This document shows, in pieces, positions 813 through 27,845 of a stretch of 30,837 nt of DNA. The translations under genes were made by a program, and so were the position numbers. Origin of the DNA: a virus. Taxonomy: Duplodnaviria > Caudoviricetes. Under the pieces are notes generated by a model. The model ran no database searches, was not told where the DNA came from, and worked only from the letters and a program-made list of their open reading frames with translations. Location of the stretch: positions 1 through 30,837 of the IMG/VR virus record IMGVR_UViG_3300044528_000009. One strand, written 5' to 3'. Position 1 is the first letter of the stretch, and each line of letters begins with the position of its first letter.

Positions 813-828
813 TGTTAGACGTCTATCA
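813..828. promoter_or_regulatory. 16-bp dispersed operator/parS-like site, copy 1
   Basis: TGTTAGACGTCTATCA. Confidence 0.85.
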
Positions 829-1726: not shown

Positions 1727-1938
1727 AACGTTTCACTCCTTGTCGTGAGCGCGGCTGCCACGCCGTCGCGGATCGCGGTGAGGATCTCGCCGGGGCGCGG
1801 CATCGCGTTGATGATTGCGTTCTCGATGCCGTCGGCGATGCCCGACTGCATCGCGTCGCGCATCGCCTCGATGAATGCGTCGCTGCGCAGCATCTCGCCG
1901 ACGACTTCGAGATCGCGTTGCACTTGCTCAGGTGTCAC
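1723..1938 (-). CDS. Hypothetical protein
   Basis: Translationally coupled to both neighbours (GTGA/ATGA overlaps). Confidence 0.6.
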   Translation of the reverse strand: MTPEQVQRDLEVVGEMLRSDAFIEAMRDAMQSGIADGIENAIINAMPRPGEILTAIRDGVAAALTTRSETL

Positions 1939-2144
1939 TCGACCCACTCCCCGACGGCGGCAGCGACCGCTTCGGTGAGCGAGAGATCTTCGGTGATCGC
2001 CTTGATGCGTAGCTGCCGGTGCAGGTGCGCCGGGAGCGACACGTTGATCGAGACCCGAGCCCCGTCGCCCGTGACGGGCTTGTCCGTGCCCGTGGCGAGC
2101 TTCGAGGCGGGGGTGCGCTTGCTGGTACTGGTTCGATTAGCCAT
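1935..2144 (-). CDS. Ribbon-helix-helix DNA-binding protein (ParG/CopG-like)
   Basis: 69 aa: unstructured N-tail, then RVSINVSLPAHLHRQLRIKA..EDLSLTEAVAAAVGEW. Confidence 0.8.
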   Translation of the reverse strand: MANRTSTSKRTPASKLATGTDKPVTGDGARVSINVSLPAHLHRQLRIKAITEDLSLTEAVAAAVGEWVE

Positions 2145-2161
2145 GCCCAGGAGCATACCCG

Positions 2162-2183
2162 AAATGTGACATCCGTCACAACT
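2162..2183. promoter_or_regulatory. CRP/GlxR-like palindrome TGTGA-N6-TCACA
   Basis: AAATGTGACATCCGTCACAACT directly upstream of the RHH gene. Confidence 0.5.
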
Positions 2184-2198
2184 AGGGGATCTAGGGCA

Positions 2199-2214
2199 TG
2201 TTAGACGTCTATCT
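2199..2214. promoter_or_regulatory. 16-bp dispersed site, copy 2
   Basis: TGTTAGACGTCTATCT. Confidence 0.85.
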
Positions 2215-2964
2215 GGGGTATGATCTCTATGGAAGCGAAGGGGCTCCACGAGCAAGGAGTCAAGCCCCCCGCCTGCGATCCGGCCCCCAGGTAGCGATGG
2301 ACCGGCGTGTGAGGCTCCATGAGCAGCGCAGCACGATCGTCCGCACGGATTCCAAGCCGAGGCGGGGAGCGACCGGCGAAGCGGGCTCCACGAGATGGGA
2401 CGCAAGCAGAGCCCAGGTAGCCGGAATCCCACGTAGCGCCTGCGTGGGGAGGGAGCGTCGCTACGCACGAGCGCAGCGCCAGACTCGGACGGCGTGACCT
2501 TCGGTCGAGCGATCGACCGGGAGCAAGGCGGCGATTGCGCGCAGCGAACGCCGAGCGAGCCGAACCTCAGAAGTCGGCCACTCGCTCGGACAACTCGCAA
2601 GCAGCGCGTGTCTCGCATGGCGGCTCTCGACACCCGAGCGCAACAACGGACCGAAGGCGGGTGACTCGCTCCCCGGCAAGCAAGCGAGAACGCAATCCGA
2701 ACCACCAACTTGATCGGTTCTAGTGAGTACGGGCAGCGCTTCGACGCTGAGCTACCGATCGTCCCGGCATCGCAGACTAACGGCTGCACGGCACGCGTCA
2801 CGCGTGTCGTTCTCACGGCGGATTGCAACGAACACCCGGCGCTCGCAACGAGCGTCGGCGGTGTTCGGCGAGCGCATCGATCACGGCTCGCATTTTGCAG
2901 CGGCTCACCACACCCGATCACTGCGACTGATCGATGCGCTCACCGAACATCGAACGATGTTCGA

Positions 2965-2980
2965 CGATAGACGTCTAACA
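2965..2980. promoter_or_regulatory. 16-bp dispersed site, copy 3
   Basis: CGATAGACGTCTAACA, just before the RBS of the first plus-strand gene. Confidence 0.85.
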
Positions 2981-2999
2981 CCCACGGAGTAACATACCG

Positions 3000-3143
3000 A
3001 TGAGCACCACACTTCACATCCTCAATCACGCACTCCCCGAAGCGCACGAAGTCACCCACGGCGACATCGAGCACTTCGTAATCGCAGCGATTGCGCTCGC
3101 AGTCGCTCACTTCTTCACGCACCGAAAGGAAGTGCACGCATGA
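3000..3143 (+). CDS. Small His-rich peptide with hydrophobic segment (47 aa)
   Basis: Hand-translated MSTTLHILNHALPEAHEVTHGDIEHFVIAAIALAVAHFFTHRKEVHA; GGAG RBS; ATGA overlap with the next gene. Not in the ORF track. Confidence 0.55.
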   Translation: MSTTLHILNHALPEAHEVTHGDIEHFVIAAIALAVAHFFTHRKEVHA

Positions 3144-3292
3144 CGAAGTTCAAGATCGGCGAAACGGTTTACGCGCACGGCGAACCCGCCGTCGTGAAGT
3201 TCCTCGCGCCGGGCGGCGAAGCAATCGTCGTCGAGTACGCGGACGGCAAGAAGTTCTTCGAGTACGCGCACCTGCTCGTGCTCGCCGCGTGA
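3140..3292 (+). CDS. Small beta-rich (SH3-like) hypothetical protein (50 aa)
   Basis: Hand-translated MTKFKIGETVYAHGEPAVVKFLAPGGEAIVVEYADGKKFFEYAHLLVLAA; GAAAGGAAG RBS; stop is the TGA of structured repeat copy 1. Confidence 0.7.
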   Translation: MTKFKIGETVYAHGEPAVVKFLAPGGEAIVVEYADGKKFFEYAHLLVLAA

Positions 3293-3370
3293 CGTTCAGC
3301 GAGTGTCGCACCGGTCAGTCACGATCGGTGCGACGTTCGGTGCACGAGCACCACGAACCAAACGAAAGGA
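3289..3370 (+). repeat. Structured intergenic repeat, copy 1
   Basis: GTGACGTTCAGCGAG-TGTCGCACCGGTC-loop-GATCGGTGCGACG-TTCGGTGCACGAGCACC...ACGAAAGGA. Confidence 0.9.
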
Positions 3371-3376
3371 AATGAC

Positions 3377-4093
3377 ATGGCAACCAACCCGAAGATCGGG
3401 GACGTCAGTGACGTCATTGATGCCTTGCAGTCGATCGAGAACGAGAATGACCGCTGGCATCTCGCCGAGTTGCTCAAGGTGAAAGTGCCGAACGGCGACG
3501 ACGGCTTCGACGAGATCATCGCCGAAGCCGAAGCGGCCGGTATCACGAAGAGCTTGAGCGTCACCACGCTTCGGCTCTACCGCGACACCGCGAAGCGCTG
3601 GCCCGCCGACAAGCGGATACCGGGATTGAACTTCTCGGTACACCGCGAGGTACTGCCGCTCATCGCGGCCGACGGCAACACGAACGTTGCGACGCGCGTG
3701 TTGCGTGACGTCGAGCGCACGGCGAAGAAGGAGCACGAGAAGGTGACGGTTGCTCGGGTGCGTGCCGCAGTACGCATCGAGCGCAAGATGCCGCCGCCGA
3801 AGACGACGGATGCCGCGGCGAAGGCGGCATTCGATGCGCTGCACGACTTGCAGCACGGAGCACCGAAGCTGATCGCTGCGATCGGTTCCGGCACCGACGC
3901 CGACGCGTTGAGCAAGCTGCACGACGGCTTGACGAAGACGCTCGGTCACGTCGACAAGCTGCGTGCCCGGCGTGCACAGAAGGCCGCGGCCAAGAAGACC
4001 GCGGCCGCTCCGAAGCCCGCTGCACCGAAGGCAGCGGCACCGACTGCGAAGAAGGCGCCCGCCAAGAAGCGGGGCAACCTCCGCGGTCTCTAG
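3377..4093 (+). CDS. Putative DNA-binding protein with histone H1/HupB-like C-terminal tail
   Basis: HTH-like N-half (RWHLAELL...LSVTTLRLYRD...LNFSVHREV) and an AAKK/PKAA-rich tail; strong RBS. Confidence 0.65.
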   Translation: MATNPKIGDVSDVIDALQSIENENDRWHLAELLKVKVPNGDDGFDEIIAEAEAAGITKSLSVTTLRLYRDTAKRWPADKRIPGLNFSVHREVLPLIAADGNTNVATRVLRDVERTAKKEHEKVTVARVRAAVRIERKMPPPKTTDAAAKAAFDALHDLQHGAPKLIAAIGSGTDADALSKLHDGLTKTLGHVDKLRARRAQKAAAKKTAAAPKPAAPKAAAPTAKKAPAKKRGNLRGL

Positions 4094-4102
4094 GTGAACG
4101 CA

Positions 4103-4180
4103 GTGACGTTCAGCGAGTCCCGCACCGGTCACACGATCGGTGCGGGGTTCGGTGCACGAGCACCACACTCAACGAAAGGA
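4103..4180 (+). repeat. Structured intergenic repeat, copy 2
   Basis: GTGACGTTCAGCGAG-TCCCGCACCGGTC-ACAC-GATCGGTGCGGGG-TTCGGTGCACGAGCACC...ACGAAAGGA. Confidence 0.9.
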
Positions 4181-4188
4181 ACGAAGCA

Positions 4189-5115
4189 ATGACAGTGACC
4201 TTCAATCTCGAAACTGTCCCGATCGAAGACCGGGCTCGTGTCGCGGGCTTGATCCCCGACCCGAAAGTTGCCGAGGGTTACGTGCACCGCTCGATCCGCG
4301 GTGTCGAAGACTTCGACCTGCTCGACTACGCGATCCAGCGCGAGAAGAACGTGCTGCTTGCCGGGCCGACCGGCAGCGCCAAAACGACGTTGTTCCGTGC
4401 GTACGCCGCGAGCCGGGGGTTGCCCTTCGTCATCGTCGAGTCGAACGCGGCGATGGACCCCGGCGTCGTGATCGGTCGCACCACGATCGAAGCCGACGTC
4501 GAAGGCAACGCGGTCGCCAAGTTCGTCGACGGCGACATGACGCTCGTCGTCCGGTACGGCGGTGTCGTGCTGATCGACGAGATCAACATGGCGCACCCGC
4601 GGATCACCGCGGCATGGCATCAGTTGCTCTCGGTGGCACGGCGCATGTCGGTGCCCGAGAACGGCGAAGTGATTCACGCCGGGTACGGCGGTGTCGAGTA
4701 CGACCCCGTAACCGGTGAAGCACTCACCGAGCCGCAACCGTTCTTCGCGACGTCGGCGTACAACCCCGGCTATCAGGGCGGGGTTCGACTGAACGAAGCG
4801 TTGAACAACCGGTTCCCGGTGCACATCGACTGGGATTACGACCACGACGTCGAAGCGCAGTTGCTCGACTCGCGTCACCTCTTGGAGATGGCCGAAATGA
4901 TTCGGTCGCTCCCCGAGATCCGCACACCCGTCTCGACGAACTCGCTGCAAGAGTTCGAGGAACACGCGACGGAGCTTGGCATCGAAGTCGCCGAAGAGTT
5001 GTTCGTGTACCGGTTCCCGCCCGAAGAGCGGGGCGCGGTGCGCAACGCGCTCGAAGCGAACCGTGACGTGATCGCCGCCGAACTCGAAGGTGTCGATGCC
5101 GACGACGACGAGTGA
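4189..5115 (+). CDS. MoxR/CbbQ/CobS-like AAA+ ATPase
   Basis: Walker A GPTGSAKT, Walker B VVLIDEIN, NPGYQG..LNEALNNRF. Confidence 0.9.
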   Translation: MTVTFNLETVPIEDRARVAGLIPDPKVAEGYVHRSIRGVEDFDLLDYAIQREKNVLLAGPTGSAKTTLFRAYAASRGLPFVIVESNAAMDPGVVIGRTTIEADVEGNAVAKFVDGDMTLVVRYGGVVLIDEINMAHPRITAAWHQLLSVARRMSVPENGEVIHAGYGGVEYDPVTGEALTEPQPFFATSAYNPGYQGGVRLNEALNNRFPVHIDWDYDHDVEAQLLDSRHLLEMAEMIRSLPEIRTPVSTNSLQEFEEHATELGIEVAEELFVYRFPPEERGAVRNALEANRDVIAAELEGVDADDDE

Positions 5116-5118
5116 CGA

Positions 5119-5134
5119 TGATAGACGTCTAACA
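5119..5134. promoter_or_regulatory. 16-bp dispersed site, copy 4
   Basis: TGATAGACGTCTAACA, 3 nt after the AAA stop codon. Confidence 0.85.
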
Positions 5135-5262
5135 ATCAGAAGGGTGCGAAGCACTCGCACCCTTCGCACGAGTGCAGCTATCCTTAGTGATGCTGCGCTC
5201 ATGCGAACCCCGAGGCAAGTCGCTTCGAGGTTCTGGCAAGCAAGCGAAAGGAAGTGAGCACA

Positions 5263-7224
5263 ATGACTGCACAACGGCGAGGCGAAACGCACGTCAATCT
5301 CGACGTGAAGACCGTGCCGCCGAAGGAACTCCTTCGAGTGCAGCGCTTGGCCCGTGAGCTTCGGCTCACCGATCAGATCCTCTCGATCGACGTTGACGCG
5401 TTGCGTATCGAGAAGACCGGCCCGGCGCCCGCATGGACAACGCTCGAAGGCGACACGATCTCATTCGCATACGCGTCGATGCCGAAGCCGACAACCCGGT
5501 TCGACATCGCAGTGTGGCTCGGGACGAACGCGCACGAGCTAGGGCACGTTCTCTACTCACCGCGCAAGGGTTCGACACTGATGTACCGAGTGCTCGAAGC
5601 CGATCGAAGCTATGTGCCGGGCATCGCAATGCTCGCGAACATCGCCGAAGATCAACGGCAGGAGCGCTTGATCCTCACGCGGTTCGCTCCGTGGCGCGGC
5701 TACTTGACGGCTGCGCTTGCGCATCACCTCTCGCCGACGGGCGAAACGGCTTGGCTCTTGATGACCGGTCGCACTTGGCTCCCCGACGACGTGCGTGCAC
5801 AAGCGAAGGCGAACATGATCCGCGTGCACGGTCAGCACATCACCGACGAGGTGACGCGGCTGATCGGCGAGTACCAGCGACTTCTCGACCCCGGCGAAAC
5901 CGAAGTCGAAGAAGCGTGGAACATCCTGCACGAGCTTCACGCGTTGTTCGCCGACGACATGCCGAAGCTGCCGAAGGGCTGCCAGGTCATCGACGGCGGC
6001 GAGCCCGACACCGACGAGGTGGAAGGCACCGAGGCACCGCGGACGGCCGACGAAGCCGACGCCGACGACACCGACGACGGTGACGACGACGACAGCGACG
6101 ACGGTGCGAGCGGCGACGGCACCGACGAAGACGACGACGACACTGACGGCGGCGGCGAGTCCGCCGACGAAGGTGACGACAACGGCGACGAAGGTGACGA
6201 AGGTGACGGCGGCGCAAGCGCGACCGACAGCAACGACGACAGCAACGCAACCGAACGCGACGGTGCACGCACCGACACGAGCGGCGGCGGCGCTGGCTCG
6301 GAGCACGTCGAGCGCAAGCGCGACAACGACAAGCCGATCACCCGCGACGACGTTCGTCGTGCATTGACGGAAGCGGCGACCGAAGCGATCAACGACAACG
6401 ATCGCGCTCGGGAGGATCTCGACACGATCATCGACGCGCTCGACCACGGGCGCGGCGGCGACGCGGCCGAGGGCGACGAGAAGCAAGGCACGTTCGTCGA
6501 TGCGACCGACACGGCACGGCAGCTTCACCGCGAGGTGAGCGACGCACTGCTCGATCTCAAGGATGAGACCGAAGCGGGTTGGCTCAAGCGCGTTGACGGC
6601 GGTCGCCTCAACGTGCGGCGGCTGATGAACCCGAACGTTGATTACGACGAACTCTTCGATCGTTACGACCCCGGCATGATGGACAGCACCGAGCTTGAAG
6701 TCGTGTTGCTGCTCGACGTGAGCGGCTCGATGATGGGCGCGACCCATCGTCTCGCCGAAGCAACGTGGGCGATCCGGTCGGCCGTCGACGATCTCGAAGG
6801 TTCGACCACCGTGTTTGCCTTCGAGGCGGATCGGCACCAGGTGCTTGCGAACACGAACGACCGTGTTGACGGTCGCATGTTCGTGCCCGACGCACTGGGT
6901 GGCACCGACCCGACGAGCGCACTGAACGAGACGTTCCGTGTCGTCGCCGGGAGTGAGGTGAAGAACCGGCTCGTCATCATCTTGACCGATGGTGAGTGGT
7001 ACGGCACGAGCGCCGACCGCGTGATCGATGCGCTGAACGCGCAAGGCATCACGACGGTACTCGCCCGGCTCGACAACGGTTACAGCAAGCAGCTTGCTGC
7101 GCTGCACCCGGATCGTGCCCCGCGGGATCACGGCGCGACGTTCGCGGCCGACATCAACGACCCGAGCGATCTCGCCCGGCTGTTCCGTCGGGTTGCGACC
7201 GAGCGGTTCAAGTCATGGCGGTGA
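5263..7224 (+). CDS. vWA-domain protein (CobT-like) with N-terminal HExxH metallopeptidase-like domain
   Basis: NAHELGH and NIAEDQRQE, long Asp/Gly linker, MIDAS LLDVSGSM...GGTDP...ILTDG; RBS AAAGGAAG before ATG 5263. Confidence 0.85.
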   Translation: MTAQRRGETHVNLDVKTVPPKELLRVQRLARELRLTDQILSIDVDALRIEKTGPAPAWTTLEGDTISFAYASMPKPTTRFDIAVWLGTNAHELGHVLYSPRKGSTLMYRVLEADRSYVPGIAMLANIAEDQRQERLILTRFAPWRGYLTAALAHHLSPTGETAWLLMTGRTWLPDDVRAQAKANMIRVHGQHITDEVTRLIGEYQRLLDPGETEVEEAWNILHELHALFADDMPKLPKGCQVIDGGEPDTDEVEGTEAPRTADEADADDTDDGDDDDSDDGASGDGTDEDDDDTDGGGESADEGDDNGDEGDEGDGGASATDSNDDSNATERDGARTDTSGGGAGSEHVERKRDNDKPITRDDVRRALTEAATEAINDNDRAREDLDTIIDALDHGRGGDAAEGDEKQGTFVDATDTARQLHREVSDALLDLKDETEAGWLKRVDGGRLNVRRLMNPNVDYDELFDRYDPGMMDSTELEVVLLLDVSGSMMGATHRLAEATWAIRSAVDDLEGSTTVFAFEADRHQVLANTNDRVDGRMFVPDALGGTDPTSALNETFRVVAGSEVKNRLVIILTDGEWYGTSADRVIDALNAQGITTVLARLDNGYSKQLAALHPDRAPRDHGATFAADINDPSDLARLFRRVATERFKSWR

Positions 7225-7297
7225 CGTTCAGCGAGTCCCGCACCGGTCGCGAGATCGGTGCGGGGTTCGGTGCACACGCACCACGACAACGAAAGGA
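7221..7297 (+). repeat. Structured intergenic repeat, copy 3
   Basis: Same element; its TGA is the vWA gene stop codon. Confidence 0.9.
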
Positions 7298-7304
7298 AAT
7301 GACC

Positions 7305-7421
7305 ATGCGCGAAGTAAAAGCACGGTGCCGATTCTGCGGCGCGCGCGTCACCTACTTCGGGAACGTCTGCGTGCGTTGCGCACCGGAGCACCCGGAGTTC
7401 GAGCCCGAGCAAGTGGGGTGA
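7305..7421 (+). CDS. Small zinc-finger protein (38 aa)
   Basis: MREVKARCRFCG...CVRC; RBS supplied by the repeat. Confidence 0.6.
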   Translation: MREVKARCRFCGARVTYFGNVCVRCAPEHPEFEPEQVG

Positions 7422-7489
7422 CGACATGGCATCGAACTACCGAATCAGAGCAACGAGTCGCAGTCAAGAAGCAAAGGAGCGTGATCGCA

Positions 7490-7651
7490 ATGCGTGATCT
7501 CGACGAGATCGTGTACGGGAACATGACCGACCGTGCACTAATCGAAGAAGCAAAGAAGATGGTCGTGTCGCAGTCGTTCAGTGAGAGCGCGCGGCGCGCC
7601 GTCGTGTACGAGCTTCGCCGCCGCGGGCTCACGAAAGGAGCAAGCCAGTGA
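7490..7651 (+). CDS. Hypothetical protein
   Basis: AAAGGAG RBS; MRDLDEIVYGNM...; start could be 7418 or 7481. Confidence 0.55.
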   Translation: MRDLDEIVYGNMTDRALIEEAKKMVVSQSFSESARRAVVYELRRRGLTKGASQ

Positions 7652-7851
7652 CCACGAAAGAGCTACTCAATCTCAAGCGCCTACTCGAAGCGGCGCTCGA
7701 CGACGACGAGTTCCGCGGCCAGCGCATCCCCGGCTTGGGGCGGCGCAGCGAAAAGCGTGTCGGCACGGATCTCATGCGCTCGCTCGGGCACGTCGATGAC
7801 GAGCTTGAACGACGCGGGATCGACGCACAAGCAAAGGAGTGGAAACCGTGA
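7648..7851 (+). CDS. Hypothetical protein
   Basis: GAAAGGAG RBS; GTGA overlap. Confidence 0.65.
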   Translation: MTTKELLNLKRLLEAALDDDEFRGQRIPGLGRRSEKRVGTDLMRSLGHVDDELERRGIDAQAKEWKP

Positions 7852-8021
7852 AGATGACACTGACCATCGAAGTCGATGTCGCCGACGATCCCACAACCGA
7901 CGTTGACACGTTGATGAACGACATCATGCCGAGCGGCGTCGATGCCGAAGCACCGAAGGTGACTGTCGATGTCGCCGGTTATCGGTTCTTCGGCACGACC
8001 CGCGGCATCGGAAGGAGGTGA
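7848..8021 (+). CDS. Hypothetical protein
   Basis: AAGGAG RBS; GTGA overlap. Confidence 0.6.
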   Translation: MKMTLTIEVDVADDPTTDVDTLMNDIMPSGVDAEAPKVTVDVAGYRFFGTTRGIGRR

Positions 8022-8332
8022 ACGAAATGCACTCGCACGGAACGTGGAAGCGTGTCGGCCAGAATCGCAACGGCGTGCCGTACCACGAAGAAGCGTGGGA
8101 GCAAGTCGGTGTCGATTGGGGCAACGGCACGAAGCCGATCGTGATGTGGCACCGTGATGCCGAGCACGTCGTGTTCAAGGTTCCGGCCGGGAAACACTGG
8201 TCGTCGCTTCTTGAGCCGAGCGTGTCGCATCCCGGCAACTTCGTCGTAGGCAAGATCATCGACGAAGGCGACGGTCGCATCGAAGTCGAAGAACTCTTCG
8301 AGATGCCGATCTCCGCGCGCGGTCGCAAGTGA
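8018..8332 (+). CDS. Hypothetical protein
   Basis: 104-aa ORF with AAGGAGG RBS (ATG 8027 is an alternative start); stop is the TGA of repeat copy 4. Confidence 0.7.
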   Translation: MNEMHSHGTWKRVGQNRNGVPYHEEAWEQVGVDWGNGTKPIVMWHRDAEHVVFKVPAGKHWSSLLEPSVSHPGNFVVGKIIDEGDGRIEVEELFEMPISARGRK

Positions 8333-8409
8333 CGTTCAGCGAGTCCCGCACCGACGACAAGCCGGTGCGGGGTTCGGTGCACGAGCACCCCCACATCCCC
8401 ACGAAAGGA
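8329..8409 (+). repeat. Structured intergenic repeat, copy 4
   Basis: Same element with a different apical loop (ACGACAAGC). Confidence 0.9.
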
Positions 8410-8419
8410 ACATCAAGCA

Positions 8420-9016
8420 ATGCCGCCCAGGAAGCAGGAATACACATACCACGAGCTTCGCGTGTTGTGGTACTTGAAGCGACACGGTGGCGCCGTCGTG
8501 CGCGTCGACAACACGTCGATCCTCACGCGTATGACGCAAGAGCTACCGATGGTGCTCGGCACGTTGCGATGGACGCTTCGCAAACTCGAAGAGCGTTCGC
8601 TCGTGCTGCGCACGTACAAGTACCCGATCGCGAAGTCGTTCGCCGATCAGTCGGGCGCCAATCCGCTCATCAAGGTGGAGCTTGTCGACCCGAAGATGGC
8701 ACTGCCACCCGAGCCGCAACCGCCGACCGCGCAAGCGATCGTCGCGTTCGAGAACCGCGAGCTTGACGAGTTGACGGCGCACGAGCCCGAGCGCAACGAC
8801 GTAATCGACGCGCTCGTCGATCGTGCGATCGAGTTGCAGCGCCAGGTGGACAAGCTGCAAGACATCATCTCGATGCTCGAAGCCGACAACGCGAAGCTGC
8901 GCAAGCGCAGCGAGCGTGCGGCCGAGCAACCGGCTCATCTCTCGCAGCGAGTGCGTGACGTGCTCACCGCCGAGAAATGGGAGGAACTCCGGCACAACGC
9001 CGAGAAAGGAGATTGA
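8420..9016 (+). CDS. Putative winged-helix plus coiled-coil protein
   Basis: ELRVLWYLK...LGTLRWTLRKLEERSLV.R is wHTH-like; C-terminal heptads. Confidence 0.6.
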   Translation: MPPRKQEYTYHELRVLWYLKRHGGAVVRVDNTSILTRMTQELPMVLGTLRWTLRKLEERSLVLRTYKYPIAKSFADQSGANPLIKVELVDPKMALPPEPQPPTAQAIVAFENRELDELTAHEPERNDVIDALVDRAIELQRQVDKLQDIISMLEADNAKLRKRSERAAEQPAHLSQRVRDVLTAEKWEELRHNAEKGD

Positions 9017-9019
9017 CCC

Positions 9020-9229
9020 ATGATGCGTTACGACACAAGCGACGACGCGCCGAGGCTTGCGAGCATCACGCGTATCGTCACGGAACCCGGCCCCGACTAC
9101 TGGCACGTCGTGTTGTACGGCGGACCGTTCGACGGCTTCACGCACGATGTGGCTTCGCTCGTCGAAGCCCGTGCATGGGCCGATGAGATGGGCTACTCAC
9201 GCAAGCGTGAGCGCTCAAGCAATGAGTGA
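9020..9229 (+). CDS. Hypothetical protein
   Basis: GAAAGGAG RBS; 69 aa. Confidence 0.6.
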   Translation: MMRYDTSDDAPRLASITRIVTEPGPDYWHVVLYGGPFDGFTHDVASLVEARAWADEMGYSRKRERSSNE

Positions 9230-9446
9230 TAGACGTCTAACACCCCGAACATCTCGAAGGGAAGAAGCAGCGATCAAGGCACTCTCGACCGAGACGCTGC
9301 GCACGATCGTCACGTCGCTCGGTGCAAACGAAGTACGCGAGCAGAGTCCCGAGTTCCCGCTCGGGGGGATCGTGCACATCACCGGCATCGGTCAAGTCCG
9401 AGCGGCGCGGCTTCGTGACGAGTTGGCATCACGCGAAGCAAGCTAG
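9222..9446 (+). CDS. Hypothetical protein
   Basis: MSDRRLTP...; start overlaps the previous gene and site copy 5. Confidence 0.5.
   Translation: MSDRRLTPRTSRREEAAIKALSTETLRTIVTSLGANEVREQSPEFPLGGIVHITGIGQVRAARLRDELASREAS
9227..9242. promoter_or_regulatory. 16-bp dispersed site, copy 5
   Basis: TGATAGACGTCTAACA; provides the TGA stop of 9020-9229. Confidence 0.85.
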
Positions 9447-9500
9447 CCCAGGTCGCAGCAACGAGCGATCGGGGTGGTGCTCAGTCGTTCGTTGCTGCAC

Positions 9501-9553
9501 GGCGCCCCCGCCGCACGGTCTTCACGGCCTGCGGCGGGGGCGCCTTTTTTTTT
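9501..9553 (+). terminator. Rho-independent terminator ending the plus-strand operon
   Basis: 15-bp GC stem GGCGCCCCCGCCGCA/TGCGGCGGGGGCGCC followed by T9. Confidence 0.9.
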
Positions 9554-9579
9554 GTGTCATCGTGCATGCCGTGCCCCCG

Positions 9580-9780
9580 GTGAAGACGATCGCGCTCACC
9601 TTCACCGACGTCCCGATCGAGTCGGTCGGCGAGATCTTGCACGCCATTCGCGCATGCGGTCTCGATCTCGAAGTGCGGGTGCGGCAAGTGCGGGCGCGTG
9701 CGGTGTCGCCCGAATCGTTGTTGCGCATCGACTCGAAGATGGTCGAAGCCGTCGAGATCGACGACGAGCCCGAGAGCTAG
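9580..9780 (+). CDS. Hypothetical protein
   Basis: VKTIALTFTDVPIESVGEILHAI...; no clear RBS, start uncertain. Confidence 0.45.
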   Translation: MKTIALTFTDVPIESVGEILHAIRACGLDLEVRVRQVRARAVSPESLLRIDSKMVEAVEIDDEPES

Positions 9781-10296
9781 TCACATGCCCGTGCACGGAT
9801 CGTCGCCGAAGCGCATCGACCATGCGCCCCCGCCGCCGTGTTCGAGCGTGAACGCGGCGACGGCATCCTGCACGCGTGACGGCGCTTCGTACGCGTAGCG
9901 CCAGGTGCCGTGCCCGGCACGCTGCGCCCAGTAGCGCCACGTCGTCGGGATGAACTGGTACGCGCCCGAACCGTCCCACGGATGCGAGCGTTCGGTGTAG
10001 TCACCGCGGGTCTCGTGCGCCCGGATGCACGACATGGTACCGAGCACTGCGCTTGACGGGTGCGGTACAACTTGCGGCCGAGCTTGCCGTCGTGGCATCG
10101 CTTGCGATCGGGCCGTCGCCGTTGTCGTGAGAGACCGGGCGGCGGCTCGGTGCGCGTGCGGGGGTGGTCGTTCATGGGGGCTTGTCGTCGTCGAGCTTGT
10201 CGTCGTGATCGGCGGCGGCGGATTCGCGGCTGCGCTCGTGCACGCCCCCAGGATCGCAAGCAGCGGAAGTGTCAACGCCTTGACGGTTCGGCGCAC
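9781..10296 (-). CDS. Rpf-like lytic transglycosylase with lipoprotein signal
   Basis: LLAILGAC lipobox, Pro/Thr linker, CIRAHETRGDY...GAYQFIPTTW...AP..VQDAVA...G.GAW. Confidence 0.8.
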   Translation of the reverse strand: MRRTVKALTLPLLAILGACTSAAANPPPPITTTSSTTTSPHERPPPHAHRAAARSLTTTATARSQAMPRRQARPQVVPHPSSAVLGTMSCIRAHETRGDYTERSHPWDGSGAYQFIPTTWRYWAQRAGHGTWRYAYEAPSRVQDAVAAFTLEHGGGGAWSMRFGDDPCTGM

Positions 10297-10913: not shown

Positions 10914-12798
10914 GCCCTTTTCGGTAGCTCAGCGCCTCCCCCAACACCGCGTTCTTGCCCGGCGTTTTGCCCGATTCGCGCAGCGCCTTGATCGCTCGTC
11001 CGCGCCCGGCGTCGAGCGGCACCCCGATCTCGTCAAGCTCGCGCGCCTTGTCGAACGCGGCGCTCGACCATCCCATTCGGACCGGCCGCGAGTACGACAC
11101 GTCGCCGGTCACGGGATCGGTGTTGCGCTCGATCTTGAGCGTCGGGCCGACCCACGACAACCGCGAGCCCTTCTCACACGAAAGGGTGACGCCGGTCGAC
11201 GTGCGGTGTAGCTCCCAGGTCACGTCGACGTCTTGCTGCTTCGCCGACGTGCCCCGCGGTCCCTTCGTGCGCTTCTTGCCTGCATGATCGGTGCGCAAGT
11301 ACGCGACGCCCGCCTGCTTCAAGCGGAGCCCGGTGTGGCGGGTGAACGCCCGCACCGTGTCGGCCTTGTCCTCTTCGCCGCCGACCGCGCCCGTGAACGT
11401 GTCGATGACGCACGCGACGGCGCCGACGCTGCGCACGGCGTCGAGCAACTCCTTGCCGCCGTCGTCGCTGTCGAGCGTGTGCATCGGGGGGAGCAACGCG
11501 TAGTGCAGGTGCGCGAGCCGGTCGTAGCCGAACCCGAAGCCGGTGATGCGATCGTCGAGATCGTCGGCGGTCATCTCGAAGTCGAAGTACGCGATGTCGA
11601 GCGGCGGTTGCGCGACGCCGGTCCAGGGATCTTCTCCCATCGCCAGTTTCGCCGCGCACCACAACGCCAACTCGCTCTTGCCTTCTTTGGCGTCGGCCCA
11701 CAAGGCCATCGCCCGGCCTTCCGGCCAGAAGTCTTCGACGAGCCAGAATCGTTCGGTCACGTCTCGGTGCTCGAACTCGTCCCAGTTGAGATAGAGAGCC
11801 GAGTGATGATAGACGTCTAACTTCTGCTCTCCTTCGGGTTCGGGCTCGGGCACGGCGATCGGCGGGATCACCGCGTGCCGCAACGCCAGTAGCTCGTCGT
11901 TCGTCTTCGCGTTCGCCTTGCCGACCGCGTGACGCACCATCGCCTCGAACTCGGTGCAACGCGACGGCGACGACACTTCGGCGCGCCGCGTCTCGCCCGT
12001 CGCCATGAGTGCTTCGTGCCAGCGTTCGGCGAGCGCCTGCAACGTCGGTTTCGATCCGAGCACCCCGCACCGCACGTACTCCATCCCCCACGTCAAGCAG
12101 TGCTGCATCGAGTCGTGCCGTGCCCGGTGCACGTCACGGCTCGTCTCGTCGACGAAGTGCTGCACGATCGCCGACGCGTACCCTTGCGCTTCGCCGGTCG
12201 CGCATGCTTCGACGAACATGGTGAGCGCGTCGGCGTCGACCGCATGCGAACGCACGTCGGTACTTGCCGCCCGCGACAACTCGCCGATCCACTCCCACGG
12301 CAACTCGGGAAGCTCGTCGACGCGCGGCACGATCTCGGCCGCGGCCATGATCGACTGATCGAACCACCCATACGCACGGCCTTCGGGATGCACACTCGGC
12401 GCCACGAGCGCATAACGATGCGTGCGCTGCACGATGTCCATGCCCGGCAACGACGTCACCCACAACAAGCCTGCGGGCACGCGGAAGAACCGGATGCCCG
12501 ACTGATCACCGCGGTTCGAGTGCGAGATGCGCGTGAACGGCAGCGGCCCGAGCTTCGCTTTCAGATCGTCGAGTGTCTGCTTGCCGCCGTGATACGCGTC
12601 GACGTCGAGCCCGATGACGTCGACCGGCATACGCACCCCGATGTTGCCGTTCCAGCGCAACGCGGCGACGTCATCGCGCGTCATGTCCCGCCCGTCGGTG
12701 CCGGTGAGCCCGGCCGGGGGCGGTCCCTTGTGCTGCGCCGGGATGGGGAGCGGATGCCACCCTGCATCGAAGTATTCGAGTGCTACGGTGTCCCGCAC
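10864..12798 (-). CDS. Bifunctional primase/polymerase fused to RecA-type (AAA_25) helicase
   Basis: GWHPLP...NIGVR..VIGLDVD prim-pol motifs; ADAKEGKS, CVIDTF, DHAGK..RGTSAK..DVD; GAAGGAG RBS before GTG 12798. Confidence 0.88.
   Translation of the reverse strand: MRDTVALEYFDAGWHPLPIPAQHKGPPPAGLTGTDGRDMTRDDVAALRWNGNIGVRMPVDVIGLDVDAYHGGKQTLDDLKAKLGPLPFTRISHSNRGDQSGIRFFRVPAGLLWVTSLPGMDIVQRTHRYALVAPSVHPEGRAYGWFDQSIMAAAEIVPRVDELPELPWEWIGELSRAASTDVRSHAVDADALTMFVEACATGEAQGYASAIVQHFVDETSRDVHRARHDSMQHCLTWGMEYVRCGVLGSKPTLQALAERWHEALMATGETRRAEVSSPSRCTEFEAMVRHAVGKANAKTNDELLALRHAVIPPIAVPEPEPEGEQKLDVYHHSALYLNWDEFEHRDVTERFWLVEDFWPEGRAMALWADAKEGKSELALWCAAKLAMGEDPWTGVAQPPLDIAYFDFEMTADDLDDRITGFGFGYDRLAHLHYALLPPMHTLDSDDGGKELLDAVRSVGAVACVIDTFTGAVGGEEDKADTVRAFTRHTGLRLKQAGVAYLRTDHAGKKRTKGPRGTSAKQQDVDVTWELHRTSTGVTLSCEKGSRLSWVGPTLKIERNTDPVTGDVSYSRPVRMGWSSAAFDKARELDEIGVPLDAGRGRAIKALRESGKTPGKNAVLGEALSYRKGRGQVPGTGLRGVSGTG
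11807..11822. promoter_or_regulatory. 16-bp dispersed site, copy 6 (intragenic)
   Basis: TGATAGACGTCTAACT, encoding K-L-D-V-Y-H in the primase-helicase linker. Confidence 0.8.
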
Positions 12799-13573: not shown

Positions 13574-14868
13574 GGTGTGTTCCTTTCGTTGATGATGGTC
13601 GTGCCGGGAAACATCGTGATGACGCGCGCCACCGCTTCGTCGTGCACGTCGGGCCGCTTCGTCGGGAACGAGATCGTGTAGCGCTTCTCGATGTCGTCGA
13701 CGACGCGTTCGATCGCGTCGAGTTGCTCGGGGGTGTGCTCCGTGCTCGCGCGCAGCGACGGCACGTCGACCGGCCACGCATGCACGAGCGCGGCACGCGC
13801 TTGCGCGTTCTCTTGCCCGATCGTGTCGATGCGATGTTGCAACCATGTGCGGATCGCATCTCGTTGATAGACGTCTAACATCTCTTGCTCGTGCTGCACG
13901 GGCGGCGCCGGTTCCGGTTGCGACTGGCTGGTCGACCCGGAACCGACGCCGCGATCTCGTGCGGCAGTCGCATCGAGCGCACGTTGCAGCGTGCCGGTCA
14001 TGTCGCCGCGCACGAACCGTTCAGCCGGTCGCGCCCGGCGCCAGTCGCGCGCCCACATCGAATGCTGGAACGCTTCCCATCCTGCGGTGAGATCCACGAG
14101 GTACAGATCGAGCGTCGCGTCGTGCAACCACATCGTCAGTCCCCACGCCGGGGACACTTGCGGCATCGGCAGTCGCGCGTCTTCGTGCCCGTCGCGCGCC
14201 GCGCCTTGTTCGTACACGAACTCGCCGTGCGCGTACCCGGCAAGCTGCACGGCGATCGCGCCCCACGAGTAGTCGAGCGACCCCCCGGTCTTGAGATCGG
14301 CGACGAGAGGTAGCTCGAAGCCGGGCACGGTGACGAGCCGGTCGAACGTCCCGGCCACCCGATGCTGATCGAGCACGACGGTCGTCTCGATCGCGCCGGG
14401 CACGACATGCACGCCCTGCGCGTCGAGCCCGTCACGGTACGCACGCACGTCGCGTTCGGTCTCGTCGCTGAGATGCGCCGGGGTCCGCCCGGCGTCGACC
14501 AGGGCGGTGATCGCATGGAGTGACGAGCCGACCTCTCTCCGATCGTTTGCCCCGCCGACGGCAGCACATTCTTCGACGAGCCGCTTCGCTTCTTCCTTGG
14601 CGGCGGCGGATGCGTACCAGGGGTCGCCGTATTGCGCCAGGAGCGCCTCCCACCGTGCCCGCAGTCCCTTGCGCCGGATGATCCCCGAAGCCGTCATGGC
14701 GGCTTTCCAGGGGGCGAGCCCACCCCCTTCGTCGAGCGCCTTGGCGACCGTCGTGACGCGGGTGTACCCGACGGGTGACCCACCCGAGGGTGGGACGACG
14801 AGCAGTCGCCCCCACTGGTCGCGCCGGTCGGTGATGTTCGGAAGCTGCGTGACGTCGATCTCGGTCAT
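13570..14868 (-). CDS. PD-(D/E)XK Cas4/RecB-like exonuclease
   Basis: YTRVTT, GSSLH, GTFDRLV, VADLKTG, QLAGYA motifs. Confidence 0.85.
   Translation of the reverse strand: MTEIDVTQLPNITDRRDQWGRLLVVPPSGGSPVGYTRVTTVAKALDEGGGLAPWKAAMTASGIIRRKGLRARWEALLAQYGDPWYASAAAKEEAKRLVEECAAVGGANDRREVGSSLHAITALVDAGRTPAHLSDETERDVRAYRDGLDAQGVHVVPGAIETTVVLDQHRVAGTFDRLVTVPGFELPLVADLKTGGSLDYSWGAIAVQLAGYAHGEFVYEQGAARDGHEDARLPMPQVSPAWGLTMWLHDATLDLYLVDLTAGWEAFQHSMWARDWRRARPAERFVRGDMTGTLQRALDATAARDRGVGSGSTSQSQPEPAPPVQHEQEMLDVYQRDAIRTWLQHRIDTIGQENAQARAALVHAWPVDVPSLRASTEHTPEQLDAIERVVDDIEKRYTISFPTKRPDVHDEAVARVITMFPGTTIINERNTP
13865..13880. promoter_or_regulatory. 16-bp dispersed site, copy 7 (intragenic)
   Basis: TGATAGACGTCTAACA, encoding M-L-D-V-Y-Q after a Pro/Ser linker. 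Confidence 0.85.
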
Positions 14869-15752: not shown

Positions 15753-15768
15753 TGTTAGACGTCTATCA
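15753..15768. promoter_or_regulatory. 16-bp dispersed site, copy 8
   Basis: TGTTAGACGTCTATCA, upstream of the recombination/replication operon. Confidence 0.85.
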
Positions 15769-17452: not shown

Positions 17453-17468
17453 TGATAGACGTCTAACA
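17453..17468. promoter_or_regulatory. 16-bp dispersed site, copy 9
   Basis: TGATAGACGTCTAACA, immediately after the stop of 17469-17561 and upstream of the 270-aa gene. Confidence 0.85.
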
Positions 17469-22076: not shown

Positions 22077-22267
22077 CAATCACCCCAGTTGGTCGAGTCC
22101 CAGTAGTCGGTATCCCACAACGGCAGTGCAGTCACGGTGACGCTGCCGGTCAAGCCCTGCGCGTCGGTGGCAGTAATCGTTTGCTGCGCGTAGTCGGCGA
22201 ACGTGTGTTGCGCGATGACACCTTCTTGTGTCGTCGTGCCGTCGCCCCAGTCCCAAGTGATCGTCAT
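22076..22267 (-). CDS. Mini PKD (Ig-like) domain protein
   Basis: WDWGDG...HTF......ITATDAQG PKD signature; WDTDYWDSTNW tail. Confidence 0.7.
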   Translation of the reverse strand: MTITWDWGDGTTTQEGVIAQHTFADYAQQTITATDAQGLTGSVTVTALPLWDTDYWDSTNWGD

Positions 22268-22282
22268 GTTAGACGTCTATCA
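22267..22282. promoter_or_regulatory. 16-bp dispersed site, copy 10
   Basis: TGTTAGACGTCTATCA fills the gap between the tape measure stop and the PKD ATG. Confidence 0.85.
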
Positions 22283-25200: not shown

Positions 25201-27140
25201 TCCCATATCACGCGCACGATGCCGAAGATCGCGTCGCGGAACTCAGGCGACACGATCATCAACGTCGCGAACCCGGCGACGGCGGCGGCGATCCCGAGTG
25301 CCATCGGACCGCTCATCGTCATGCCGAGAATCTTCGTGCCTTCGGCGACACCGTTGAAGCCGGGCAGCACCGACAGCGCTTGTGACCCAAGGTTCTTCAT
25401 CTCGCCGCCGATGAGACCGACCGGCCCGGCGAGCCCCTTGAACATGCCGCCGATGACCGGGAGGTTCGACAGCATCGGCGTGATGCCGACCGCGGCTGCG
25501 CCACCGATCCCGGCGATGACGGGCGCAAGTTCCTTGATGCGCTCGACGAAGTTCTCGACGCCCATCTCCTTGATGGCACGCGTCCAGCGGTCGAACAAGC
25601 CGGTGACGACCGACATCGCTCCGGCCAGCTTCTCGCCGAGCGCGGTGGCGAGCGGAGCAACGGCGGGCTCGATGCCGCGCAGCAAGTCGGTGAGCTTGTT
25701 CACGAAGTCGACGGCTGCGCCGCCGCCACGCGGATCGATGAACGGCTGCACGATCGCGCCGCCGATGTCGCGCATCGCGCCCTTGATGCGATCGGTCGCG
25801 CCGACCCACGTCGTCTTCAAGTTCGCGGCCGCGCCGCCGAAGCGCATCTCCATGCCCTTGGCGAGCGCGTCGAGCGCCGTCGTCGCGTCGAAGCTGCCGG
25901 TCGAGATCTCTTCCTTGATCTGTGTCGCGGTCTTGCCCATCGCGAGACCGATCAACTCGGCCGCGTTGATGCCGCGTTGCGCGAACTGCATCAAGTCGAC
26001 GCCCGTTATCTTCCCGGCCGCTTGTATCTGCGACATGACGAGCGTGATCTCGTCGAGTGTCTGCGCACTCCCTCCGGTCGCGGCGATCGCGTCTTGGATC
26101 GAGCCGAGGTACGGGATGACCTTCTGCGCCTCGATGCCGAAGCCGAGCATGCGCTGCGTCGCTTCGATGAACGCTTGCCGCGGGAACGGCGACGTGCGCG
26201 CGAACTTCGTGATGTCGTCCATCATCTTCTGCGCGGCTTCGCCGCTGCCGAGGATGGTCTTGAACGCGGCGCGCGCCGTTTGATTGAGCGTGTTGTAACC
26301 GATGCCGGTCTTGATCGTGGAGATGCCGACCCCGGCCATCGCGCCGCCCGCGATGCCTGCGGTGATGCCGAGCGACTTCATCGACGACACGCCGACGCGA
26401 CCGATGCCTTGACTGATCGTGCTCGCCGCCCGGCCCGCGCCTTGCGTCACCACCTCGAACGCGCGCGACAGTTGCGCACTGATCGCGGGCCCGGCGTCGG
26501 CACCGACGCGTGTGAACGCCGACGAGATCGCACTCGCTGCTCGACCACCGGCCGACGTCACCGCCGCGAACGCTCGGCCGAGTCCGGTGACAACCGCGTT
26601 GCCTGCGCCGCCTAACCGGGCGAACGCACCGCCGATCGCCGAAGCGGCTCGGCCCCCGGCTGTCGTGACCGCGGAGAACGCGCGGCCGAGCCCGTTGACG
26701 ATCGGGTTGCCGCTCGCACCGAGCCGGGCGAACACCGACGAGATCGCGCTCGCCGCCCGCCCGCCTGCGCTCGCGACAGCAGAGAACGCGCGACCGAACG
26801 CAGTCGTGATCGGCGACGCCGCGGCACCGAGCTTCCCGAGTGCCGCGCCGATCGCCGACGCCGCTCGCCCACCCGCTGATTGCGCAGCAGCGAACGCCCT
26901 GCCGAGCGACTGCGTGATCGTGTTGCTCGCACGCTTCGCTTCGGCGTCGAATCCCGGAAGTTTTAGTTGCTGCGCGGTCGATCGGGAAAATGCTTGCGAT
27001 GTCGCCTTGCCGAGTTCTTCCCCGGCCTGCTTGCCGACGCCGCCCATCGTGCGTTGCATCTCGCGCCGAACGGCAGTTTGGAACCCGGCGAAGCTCGGCG
27101 AGATCTGAACGAACGCCTGCCCGATGAAGCCGTCAGCCAT
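22284..27140 (-). CDS. Tape measure protein with C-terminal peptidase-like and SLT domains
   Basis: 1618 aa, Ala/Gly-rich; tape-measure N-domain; NWVWVN repeats; SYH....ARD...HRDHLH; RESGGNPRAIN.WD.NA..G.PSKGLMQ. Confidence 0.95.
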   Translation of the reverse strand: MADGFIGQAFVQISPSFAGFQTAVRREMQRTMGGVGKQAGEELGKATSQAFSRSTAQQLKLPGFDAEAKRASNTITQSLGRAFAAAQSAGGRAASAIGAALGKLGAAASPITTAFGRAFSAVASAGGRAASAISSVFARLGASGNPIVNGLGRAFSAVTTAGGRAASAIGGAFARLGGAGNAVVTGLGRAFAAVTSAGGRAASAISSAFTRVGADAGPAISAQLSRAFEVVTQGAGRAASTISQGIGRVGVSSMKSLGITAGIAGGAMAGVGISTIKTGIGYNTLNQTARAAFKTILGSGEAAQKMMDDITKFARTSPFPRQAFIEATQRMLGFGIEAQKVIPYLGSIQDAIAATGGSAQTLDEITLVMSQIQAAGKITGVDLMQFAQRGINAAELIGLAMGKTATQIKEEISTGSFDATTALDALAKGMEMRFGGAAANLKTTWVGATDRIKGAMRDIGGAIVQPFIDPRGGGAAVDFVNKLTDLLRGIEPAVAPLATALGEKLAGAMSVVTGLFDRWTRAIKEMGVENFVERIKELAPVIAGIGGAAAVGITPMLSNLPVIGGMFKGLAGPVGLIGGEMKNLGSQALSVLPGFNGVAEGTKILGMTMSGPMALGIAAAVAGFATLMIVSPEFRDAIFGIVRVIWDGLQPAIDAIIRAFRDLGPPVMDVVKAIGSFLGGALEAMLPTLKEAADWLGQGLAIGIDLVSGALQIVLPMVETLLGWFENLLPVLGPITKAVLAGAAAWAVYKTTVGIVNIIKGIVTATKLLTSGQLAQAIATKIAAAAQWLWNAAMAANPIGLIVAAIALLIGGIILAYNKVGWFRAAIDWLWQAIQGVFYWIVDNWKLLAVILLAPIALPLAAALAIFFFFRDQVIGVWNAVYGAIKGAVDAIWGAILVAFNWIKNNWPLLAAIILAPFILPLAIALLAFTYFRNAIIAAWNAVGAAFNWVWVNVIKRVWDALSAAVNWVWNAVLLPTFRAYVAIWNWLGAAFNWVWVNIIQRAWYALRDAILWVWVNVILRTFNAYIAVWNALGAAFNWVWVNIIQRAWNALGAAVNWMWTVVIQPTWNRITSLWNALGTGINWVWVNVIQRAWGLMEDGLRALRSTFEWAVNAIGKVWDVLKKAVGTPIKIVIDKIINPLLDGINWLLDKVGIDKIPKIDSRSIPTFAQGGRVPGGWGGGDRVPALLEPGEWVLTKRQAAALGYGNLRSLPRYASGGLVDFTPSNIVGDIIDKGKSIAGGVWDFGKDVVNAATNMLRKVAADAFEKMANVTIRPLIDMIPGDAAWVQWMKKTAHWVIDLGIQLIRGKAEDDVPSFGMGIDEIVAQIIAQYPQLRVTSALRPGDTKSYHSKNLARDLAGPVPVMAEAGAWVQRTMAAALLEGIHNPTLSVKNGQIVPASLWGPATWAGHRDHLHLAAEAAAAGATVGGTLGEWVATAIRATGVNPAIWAAAISYQIQRESGGNPRAINNWDINAQNGVPSKGLMQVIDPTFAAYRHPQLSPNIWDPVSNIAAAIRYIMGRYGANPHSLGRWRPGGGYDAGGWLPTGASIAVNNTGRPEPVLTPRQWDDLSRAAQDGQNMASVVELLRRIAYATEQGTSVVIDGREVARVVDREIGWVS

Positions 27141-27528: not shown

Positions 27529-27845
27529 GACCACTTCGCGACCGCCTCGAACAGTGCTTCGACTTCCCCGAAGCGCCAGTCATAGGAGTGGAAGAGCGCC
27601 CATTGTTCCGGCCCGAGCAGAATCTCGAACCCGCCAACGACATCGCCTTGCGCGAACTTGTCTTGCGCGTCGAGCGACCACTGTCGTTGCTCGGGAAACT
27701 CGATGACGTCGACGACGACGTTACCTGCTTCGTCTTCGTGTGCACCGAGCTTCACCGGGAACGTCTTGTGCGTTGCTTCCGCATGCGCGGCGCGGTACCC
27801 GGCGAGATCGAACCCGGCCGAGTCCGCGCCGTTCGTCGCGGTCAC
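27462..27845 (-). CDS. Tail assembly chaperone (gpG-like)
   Basis: Between major tail and tape measure; LLGPEQWA.F motif. Confidence 0.8.
   Translation of the reverse strand: MTATNGADSAGFDLAGYRAAHAEATHKTFPVKLGAHEDEAGNVVVDVIEFPEQRQWSLDAQDKFAQGDVVGGFEILLGPEQWALFHSYDWRFGEVEALFEAVAKWSGFEMGQGSSPPRVRALTPRSS

Follow-up and report, generated by a model that had tools for sequence, protein, structure and literature searches.

An intergenic RNA element family of phages as a probable signal for RNase III processing

Background

The early precursor transcript of phage T7 carries five RNase III signals, at which single-strand cuts leave stabilising 3′ hairpins (PMC3867540). Elsewhere, clustered hammerheads flank phage genes and were proposed to cut transcripts into gene-length mRNAs (PMC3088659), and the role of bacterial and phage hammerheads is still called unresolved (PMC6765202). 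Here, we describe a structured element found in four copies in a plus-strand operon of IMGVR_UViG_3300044528_000009, a tailed phage (Duplodnaviria; Caudoviricetes) from a soil metagenome, whose entire record of 30,837 bp is the stretch analysed (“the window”). From its fold, its variation among related phages, and the RNA-cutting modules that take its place in their genomes, we regard a role as RNase III site as likelier for the element than that of a new catalyst.

Results

Four copies of one structured element

The 16-mer GTGACGTTCAGCGAGT occurs exactly four times in the window, always on the plus strand (at 3289, 4103, 7221, and 8329), and an 11-mer within the element matches without mismatch at these four sites only. 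The four copies align with 85 % column identity, and the repeat described in the original prediction is genuine. Its parts are as follows (ORF, open reading frame; P1, the long hairpin; SD, Shine-Dalgarno sequence; ^, predicted cut):

3289..3371, plus strand: copy 1, upstream of the gene of 238 aa that starts at 3377; outer strand 3289-3299 (with the TGA of ORF 3140-3292), P1 3300-3339, second hairpin 3339-3352, then an A/C spacer and the SD at 3364-3370; predicted cut 3338^3339 (partner 3302^3303), alternative register 3341^3342
4103..4181, plus strand: copy 2, before the MoxR gene (4189); P1 4114-4151, second hairpin 4151-4164; predicted cut 4150^4151 (partner 4116^4117)
7221..7298, plus strand: copy 3, after the VWA gene (it holds the VWA TGA) and before a 38-aa ORF at 7305; P1 7232-7269, second hairpin 7269-7282; predicted cut 7268^7269 (partner 7234^7235)
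8329..8410, plus strand: copy 4, after the ORF ending at 8332 (it holds its TGA) and before a 198-aa gene at 8420; P1 8340-8376, second hairpin 8376-8389; predicted cut 8375^8376 (partner 8342^8343)

P1 comprises 14-17 bp, and the plus strand of copies 1-4 folds with z-scores of -3.35, -4.82, -4.02, and -2.96, a stability equalled by 0, 0, 1, and 0 of 200 shuffles, respectively; the minus strand is weaker in z in all four copies. The long hairpin claimed earlier thus folds better than nearly all shuffles on the sense strand, and the two adjacent compensatory pairs said to distinguish copy 1 (C-G to G-C and C-G to U-A) are directly visible in the alignment. Likewise borne out by the ORF ends was the proposal that the opening TGA is the stop codon of the upstream gene in three of the four copies (ORFs ending at 3292, 7224, and 8332; copies 1, 3, and 4), the stop upstream of copy 2 being a TAG at 4091-4093, outside the element. 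The suggestion that each copy ends in the ribosome-binding site of the next gene held in part: ACGAAAGGAA is present in all four (3362, 4172, 7289, and 8401), but GAAAGGA, with eight plus-strand sites, is the general ribosome-binding motif of the operon and hence not specific to the element.

A search with R1, a covariance model of the element family, found no fifth copy in the window. No Rfam model reached its gathering score anywhere in the 30,837 nt, and the best match by E-value on copy 1 was a chance hit to a microRNA model (23 bits vs a cut-off of 55). Rfam 15 includes the twister, twister sister, pistol, hatchet, HDV-like, and RAGATH motifs. With no Rfam family matching any copy, the view of a cis-acting structured RNA outside Rfam gained support.

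Covariation and two alternative folds

Searches with descriptors and patterns yielded a family alignment of 23 copies from 10 phages, in which 8 of 10 core positions are near-invariant across genomes of very different gene content; C10, G11, C48, G49, U51, and G52 do not vary at all, and C7, A8, and G9 hardly do. From these 23 copies, RNAalifold selects a single long rod including the outer pairs, with 87 % of cells paired and 11 of 17 pairs changing on both sides. The covariation score of the rod was reached by 0 of 500 shuffles, and slid controls were 36-46 % paired, although this control ignores relatedness. Outer strands bind their own partner better than partners from other genomes (-8.1 vs -5.9 kcal/mol), with 0 of 10000 permutations as good, or 1 of 10000 when only one copy per genome is used. 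The second hairpin covaries as well: its position +2 is G-C in 10 copies, A-U in 12, and G-U in 1, and it begins at nucleotide 1 of the predicted product in 21 of the 23 copies and at nucleotide 2 in the other 2.

Both folds therefore covary, so that the two-hairpin drawing of the original prediction, in which the second hairpin is real, gave only one of two states. The opening GTGACGTTCAG can pair with the second-hairpin strands to form the rod instead, and as rod and second hairpin both use G49-G52, the folds are mutually exclusive. In the window copies, the two states are predicted to lie within 0-3 kcal/mol of each other, with rod shares from 0.01 (copy 2) to 0.99 (copy 3); the rod is the minimum free energy (MFE) fold of copy 3, and copy 2 is predicted to be mostly in the two-hairpin state, its freed 5′ strand pairing beside the SD. 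This near-isoenergetic pair of states, together with a stop codon in the outer strand of three of four copies and the ability of the 5′ strand of copies 2 and 4 to pair with GAAC at the end of the SD, would suit a translational switch, in which the folds are on and off states and a ribosome at the embedded TGA or a bound protein flips one into the other, coupling translation of the next gene. However, copies 1 and 3 leave the SD unpaired whichever of the main folds they adopt, SD pairing is not seen as a family feature, and constitutive hammerheads occupy the same slots in relatives (see below). As the function of the element, a switch thus seems very unlikely, but it may exist as a secondary layer.

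Predicted cleavage and refolding

E. coli RNase III requires no more than 11 bp of helix next to the cut, and one set of boxes specifies a site, with G-C preferred at position 1 of the proximal box and A-U or U-A at position 2 (PMC1540722). In vivo, no preference is stronger than that at position 2 (D), and the stretch separating the two cuts favours G-C pairs (PMC6212723); the preferences of B. subtilis RNase III are similar (PMC11780869). These box rules, from the enzymes of E. coli, B. subtilis, and Aquifex, may not be those of the host enzyme, and we infer the strand orientation of the box G-C pair from the text of these papers.

In the element family, C7-G52 and A8-U51 fall on box positions 1 and 2, placing a 3′-strand cut at C48^G49, G49 being the base with which the second hairpin opens. 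The CA/UG pairs, found in 22 of 23 copies, are near-invariant. This register (register 0; A-U at D, G-C at E) fits 22 of the 23 copies and 9 of the 10 genomes, and any other fits at most one genome. The 11 bp or more of helix expected next to a cut, in sites that mostly span two turns in all, are provided by the 14-17 bp of P1 together with the irregular outer helix. An inner box, C(-6)W(-5), which was not part of any search pattern, lies at the same bond in 7 of 8 unaligned copies (L265 4/4, L330 2/2, L044 1/1, L407 0/1; L numbers denote loci of other contigs) and in 3 aligned copies of L265, making 10 of 11 copies outside the clade with the MoxR block. Thus, the box is present on the outer side in 22 of 23 copies and on both sides in L265, L330, and L044, the window copies having the outer one only. 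A comparable geometry appears in other junction rods that are unrelated to the family: among 34 given, of which the 33 with a rod of at least 16 bp were scored, a 5′-terminal hairpin follows 25 of 86 box-matching bonds vs 80 of 572 others (Fisher p 0.0008, for positions that are not independent). In the rods of one such group, class B, and of L128, an inner box is likewise found whose cut would start a hairpin.

We consider it probable, with real room for doubt, that the four elements signal processing by RNase III and that the product downstream of each refolds so that a hairpin caps its 5′ end. A 5′-terminal stem-loop is known to stabilise mRNA. In our model, the early transcript would run from about 3000 to the terminator at 9501-9553, with each element folding into a long irregular rod, which the host RNase III would cut just before GGUGC at the bonds listed above, or 3 nt further 3′. 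The freed 5′ end could then refold into the short second hairpin and protect the message of the downstream gene. If only the 3′ strand were nicked, as in T7-type sites with internal loops, the upstream message would keep P1 as its 3′ hairpin, and both products would end in a stem, as with a type II hammerhead, which leaves stem III upstream and stem I downstream. The G-R mismatch of the family may weaken the outer half of the rod and so aid refolding of the product; more speculatively, a ribosome terminating at the stop codon in the outer strand (three of four copies) could bias the fold.

Several observations weigh against this model. RNase III sites are expected to have neither G-C nor C-G at box position 4, which is C10-G49 in 23 of 23 copies; such a pair slows the E. 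coli enzyme 7- to 14-fold (PMC1540722) and that of Aquifex 10-fold. As this preference was measured on enzymes of other species, it lowers but does not remove the RNase III claim. Box position 3 is the G-R mismatch, where A-U (E. coli) or at least pairing is preferred. At register 0, the inner box is missing from the four window copies; their matches to both D positions lie at register +3, as in L128. A cut there would leave no cap hairpin, and either register may mark the cut site in the window genome. Moreover, the outer duplexes of the window copies are no better than those with partners from other genomes (as good in 8, 13, 10, and 10 of 19 cases), and the two-hairpin state has a predicted share of 99 % in copy 2. 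Of 102 chance pattern hits, 23, 7, and 12 equal the outer-duplex energies of L330, L407, and L370, respectively. Finally, the register test was post hoc, the CA/UG invariance having been seen first, and copies that share a genome or clade do not count as independent.

A phage-encoded cutter was also considered, namely a DUF4258-like gene at 1472-1726 on the minus strand (85 aa, below the Pfam cut-off, possibly a small RNase fold). It was rejected as a general cutter since it is absent from five of five other family records and from close loci.

Known RNA-cutting modules at the same junctions

A search with the MoxR ATPase returned 677 proteins, the best 100 of which were aligned and used to fetch loci from viral and metagenome contigs; 37 loci with ATPase identities of 49-68 % were kept. 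The order of the first gene (of no known family), MoxR, and VWA is preserved wherever the contigs reach, except in L163, and each genome repeats its own junction element, as inspection of the junctions showed. Junctions were tabulated for the window and 35 loci, after dropping L155 and L223 as duplicates; L158, L173, and L177 end too early to be read before MoxR.

Before MoxR, the 33 readable junctions hold the element family in 5 cases, a hammerhead in 5, a tRNA-like minihelix in 4, a class B rod in 3, other rods in 7, and nothing in 9. Here, the other rods combine 5 with two junctions labelled “none” that show 21-26-bp rods, the nine empty junctions are short ones, and that of L225, falsely flagged as element family, counts as minihelix. 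Before the first gene (20 readable), the element family occurs 6 times, minihelices 4, hammerheads 3, class B once, rods 3, and none 3. After VWA (18 readable), there are 2 members of the element family, 4 hammerheads, 9 rods, and 3 without any, although one of these hammerheads is the L163 junction already counted before MoxR and some rods may be coding. The element is thus optional and interchangeable with known RNA-cutting modules.

Hammerheads were called by Rfam (Hammerhead_II, above gathering score, 20 loci scanned) after MoxR in L158 and after VWA in L155, L156, and L174; a second Rfam scan of 11 loci returned tRNAs only. A regular expression for the hammerhead core picked out hammerhead-like sites in 8 loci, 27 in total, each on the sense strand and none antisense, the site of L131 being type I by eye. 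Ten type II hammerhead-like sites lie in L174:679-7250 and five in L156:9-4400, one at nearly every gene junction; several of those in L174 have core variants (GAAU, or GAAA with AUA, AAA, or UUA triplets). A search of five records with RF02276 gave no match, nor did it in its own controls.

Minihelices with a T-loop (acceptor plus T-arm) number 7 in L172, 6 in L225, and 2 in L224, and also occur in L162 and L124. They are followed by A-C and a hairpin and are not called by Rfam; in L172:590-7330, L225:244-3120, L162:140-210, and L224:100-1010, they stand at gene junctions and lack D and anticodon arms. Acceptor/T-arm minihelices are substrates of RNase P and RNase Z, as in the tRNA-like domain of tmRNA, and those found here are likely processing sites of one of these enzymes. 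Single tRNA genes were also seen near the early operon of L121 (5839-5911, minus strand), L126 (4692-4763, minus strand), and L168 (6306-6380). Class B rods, which have in common a 3x3 ACG/AAC loop and, further in, a box of RNase III type with a predicted cut that starts a hairpin, were found at L123:7880-7940, 8915-8975, and 11345-11410, L168:3068-3140 and 4138-4200, and L169:2930-2990 and 4030-4095.

The minihelices raise the question of another host route, with cuts by RNase P, RNase Z, RNase E, or RNase J, or with an uncut roadblock to exonucleases at whose hairpins ends accumulate. Many family members end P1 with G-C, A-C, and a hairpin, which equals the 3′ half of the T-loop minihelices of L172 and L225, and the two-hairpin state is the MFE fold of several copies. 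Yet in L126, L130, and the window, P1 takes up the “A-C” positions as pairs and a T-loop is absent. The four window copies also have no T-stem on a 7-bp acceptor (no elbow of 7+5 bp), and P1 is not followed by an unpaired discriminator. As this route also leaves the covarying outer helix and the double box of L265, L330, and L044 unexplained, we consider it unlikely.

Replacement of hammerheads at orthologous junctions, a near-invariant core, and the absence of any Rfam match could suggest a new class of self-cleaving ribozyme, built on the invariant CAGCG/CGRUG helix with its G-R mismatch. Such a ribozyme, cutting at C^GRUG and refolding its own 3′ product into the cap, would be a functional swap for hammerheads. 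Against it, the invariant residues are Watson-Crick paired, and there is neither a conserved single-stranded catalytic core nor a pseudoknot; the need to form both rod and cap, together with the RNase III box, accounts for the conservation; the unrelated rods of class B and L128 show the same geometry without the element sequence; and a C-A cleavage loop like that of twister sister (PMC11620745) is absent from the window copies. A resemblance to pistol and twister sister was considered and dropped. Both the new class and the cut-and-refold ribozyme derived from it therefore appear very improbable to us.

Hammerheads and tRNA mimics in the same slots, together with the proximal-box fit, favour an RNase III site, which comparative evidence makes the best supported of the four candidates originally put forward, with cleavage itself predicted.

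Repeats that flank gene blocks could, alternatively, be boundaries at which gene cassettes are swapped, possibly as single-stranded DNA hairpins, as had been proposed. The ORF at 8027 is matched in only 1 of 37 related loci, the genes after VWA differ among relatives, and L163 (45-1206) has VWA before MoxR with a hairpin-plus-hammerhead cassette between them and another beginning after MoxR. An attC site is defined by paired RYYYAAC/GTTRRRY boxes around a hairpin and a cognate integrase. No such box pair is present in any of the four copies, and no integrase was found among the window ORFs scanned for protein families, with the proviso that the window may be incomplete. As G-U pairs and strand asymmetry favour a sense RNA and the three-gene order is kept in relatives with element-free junctions, we regard this as the most improbable of the readings weighed, though homologous recombination between copies may occur as a by-product.

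Reach of the family

Copies outside the alignment were found in L124, L130, and L132 (by the model) and in L265 (four), L330 (two), L407 (one), and L044 (one). Within the 6 kb of L265 that were read, nothing points to a MoxR block, and DUF932 and DUF2786 genes are present. Model R1 misses L330 and L044 and is hence narrow; in distant MoxR loci (33-43 % identity), it gave nothing better than E 0.5. A cap-anchored pattern matched 105 loci, of which 11 passed the stem filter and 3 had an SD (L330, L407, and L370, the latter being the contig of L265). Other scans were unproductive: an exact 15-mer matched in viral contigs at about 220 loci, of which none of the 120 inspected had the downstream hairpin, so that these are chance matches; a window-type pattern gave 14 matches, none convincing; a class-C pattern hit 65 loci, with real copies only in contigs already in the set and L265; and of 4 loci with an L265-type pattern, 2 were a known contig and 2 lacked P1. 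Literature searches, mostly outside subscription journals and at the level of listings, returned nothing on the element family or on RNase III sites, tRNA mimics, and hammerheads swapping slots.

The operon, the phage, and its host

The window phage is siphovirus-like and contains the following genes and signals besides the element:

Minus strand: tape measure, major tail, tail terminator, primase-polymerase, exonuclease, and RusA genes (from the ORF list and protein family scans)
About 3000 to 9450, plus strand: block of the 238-aa gene, the MoxR-type ATPase, its VWA partner, and small ORFs
3377..4093, plus strand: gene of 238 aa outside known families, its tail rich in Lys and Ala, opening the conserved three-gene block
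4189..5115, plus strand: MoxR-type AAA+ ATPase (Pfam AAA_5; PHROG 249)
5263..7224, plus strand: VWA-domain partner with an acidic linker
9501..9553, plus strand: hairpin followed by T9, likely an intrinsic terminator closing the operon (from sequence and predicted fold)

We infer that the plus-strand block from about 3000 to 9501-9553 is a single polycistronic early transcript. The probable T9 terminator indicates the use of U-tract terminators in this phage; the four elements differ from it in having 0-1 T in the 12 nt after either stem. Nevertheless, GC-rich hosts can use weak-tail terminators, and a role in transcription, as a terminator or pause site without U-tract or as the put-like antiterminator formerly suggested, was weighed. 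The put element of HK022 resembles ours in being a pair of adjacent stem-loops of about 70 nt in a phage early region, but a single put, which binds the zinc-binding domain of RNA polymerase, follows each early promoter and has its effect over 10 kb (PMC9378689), whereas here four copies sit at internal junctions, can adopt an alternative rod fold, and are replaced by ribozymes in relatives. Furthermore, the element is missing at 9 of 33 equivalent junctions, and neither a sigma-70-type promoter nor a plus-strand terminator was called in 2000-10000 by a crude scan that also missed the terminator at 9501. Such a role is, in our estimation, highly improbable.

The host likely belongs to Actinomycetota, judging from weak protein matches mostly to actinobacterial phages; no close relative was found in GTDB genomes (best 39 % identity) or among isolated phages (best 36 %). 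The element region is identical in one contig of the run that is probably its source, and identical short pieces occur in a second soil run; no joints were detected at the element region in the two DNA runs compared. Two overlapping ORFs at 27136-27845 (minus strand), which precede the tape measure gene in the usual frameshift arrangement, encode the tail assembly chaperones.

A 16-bp imperfect palindrome with the core GATAGACGTCTAAC recurs at 11 window sites, with 0 expected by chance, mostly at gene boundaries (plus strand unless stated):

Sites 1-6: 813-827 (minus), 2199-2213 (minus), 2966-2980, 5120-5134, 9228-9242, 11808-11822
Sites 7-11: 13866-13880, 15753-15767 (minus), 17454-17468, 22267-22281 (minus), 28942-28956 (minus)

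Relatives have their own versions (9 in L124, 10 in L132), often at the apex of a junction hairpin. The palindrome is likely an operator or stoperator-like site, and a candidate for its binder is a small ribbon-helix-helix-like protein (1938-2141, minus strand; weak Pfam RHH_10), which is divergent from the operon and present in 12 related loci. The site at 2966 adjoins a long structured leader upstream of the first operon gene (2815-2960), which can form a 37-bp rod. At the junction between MoxR and VWA (5138-5245), the element is absent; the palindrome is followed by three hairpins, and no box-plus-cap fit was found there.

Discussion

If our model is correct, one phage clade cuts its early message into hairpin-protected pieces by at least three interchangeable chemistries at the same junctions, namely hammerhead self-cleavage, tRNA mimicry, and RNase III. 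The junctions would then offer natural swap-in controls for the question of what bacterial and phage hammerheads do, as well as a large number of natural substrates for RNase III from GC-rich hosts, an enzyme that has been little studied, and the element itself would be a compact stabilising part for actinobacterial expression. The cut-and-refold design, in which the substrate helix excludes the cap left behind, predicts the cut sites to the nucleotide.

Among known systems, the tRNA-like acceptor/T-arm minihelices share with the element the same junctions (L124, L162, L172, L224, and L225) and, in many family members, the 3′ half of stem, A-C, and hairpin, but not the T-loop architecture. Type II hammerheads flanking prophage genes (RF02276; PMC3088659) occupy the same genomic slot in relatives and leave products of the same anatomy, with a long hairpin upstream and a short hairpin at the new 5′ end followed by an A/C spacer and SD. 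Unlike them, the window element would need a protein, as it lacks the hammerhead core (CUGAUGA, GAAA, and NUH around a three-stem junction), for which neither Rfam nor the core expression gave a match in the window.

The T7 early signals (five, including R1.1 and its minimal derivative) are similar in being repeated intercistronic irregular rods of about two helical turns, in which mismatches or loops lie close to the predicted cut and box positions 2 and 1 hold A-U and G-C, and in their location beside the next SD. In contrast to them, the element has GC-rich stems, an invariant C-G at box position 4, and a G-R mismatch at position 3, and belongs to a phage of a probably actinobacterial host. 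Its outer helix also excludes a covarying hairpin that would cap the downstream product. While the function class of RNase III sites is known from T7 and hammerhead clusters between phage genes have been described, the sequence family of the element, outside every Rfam model, appears to be new.

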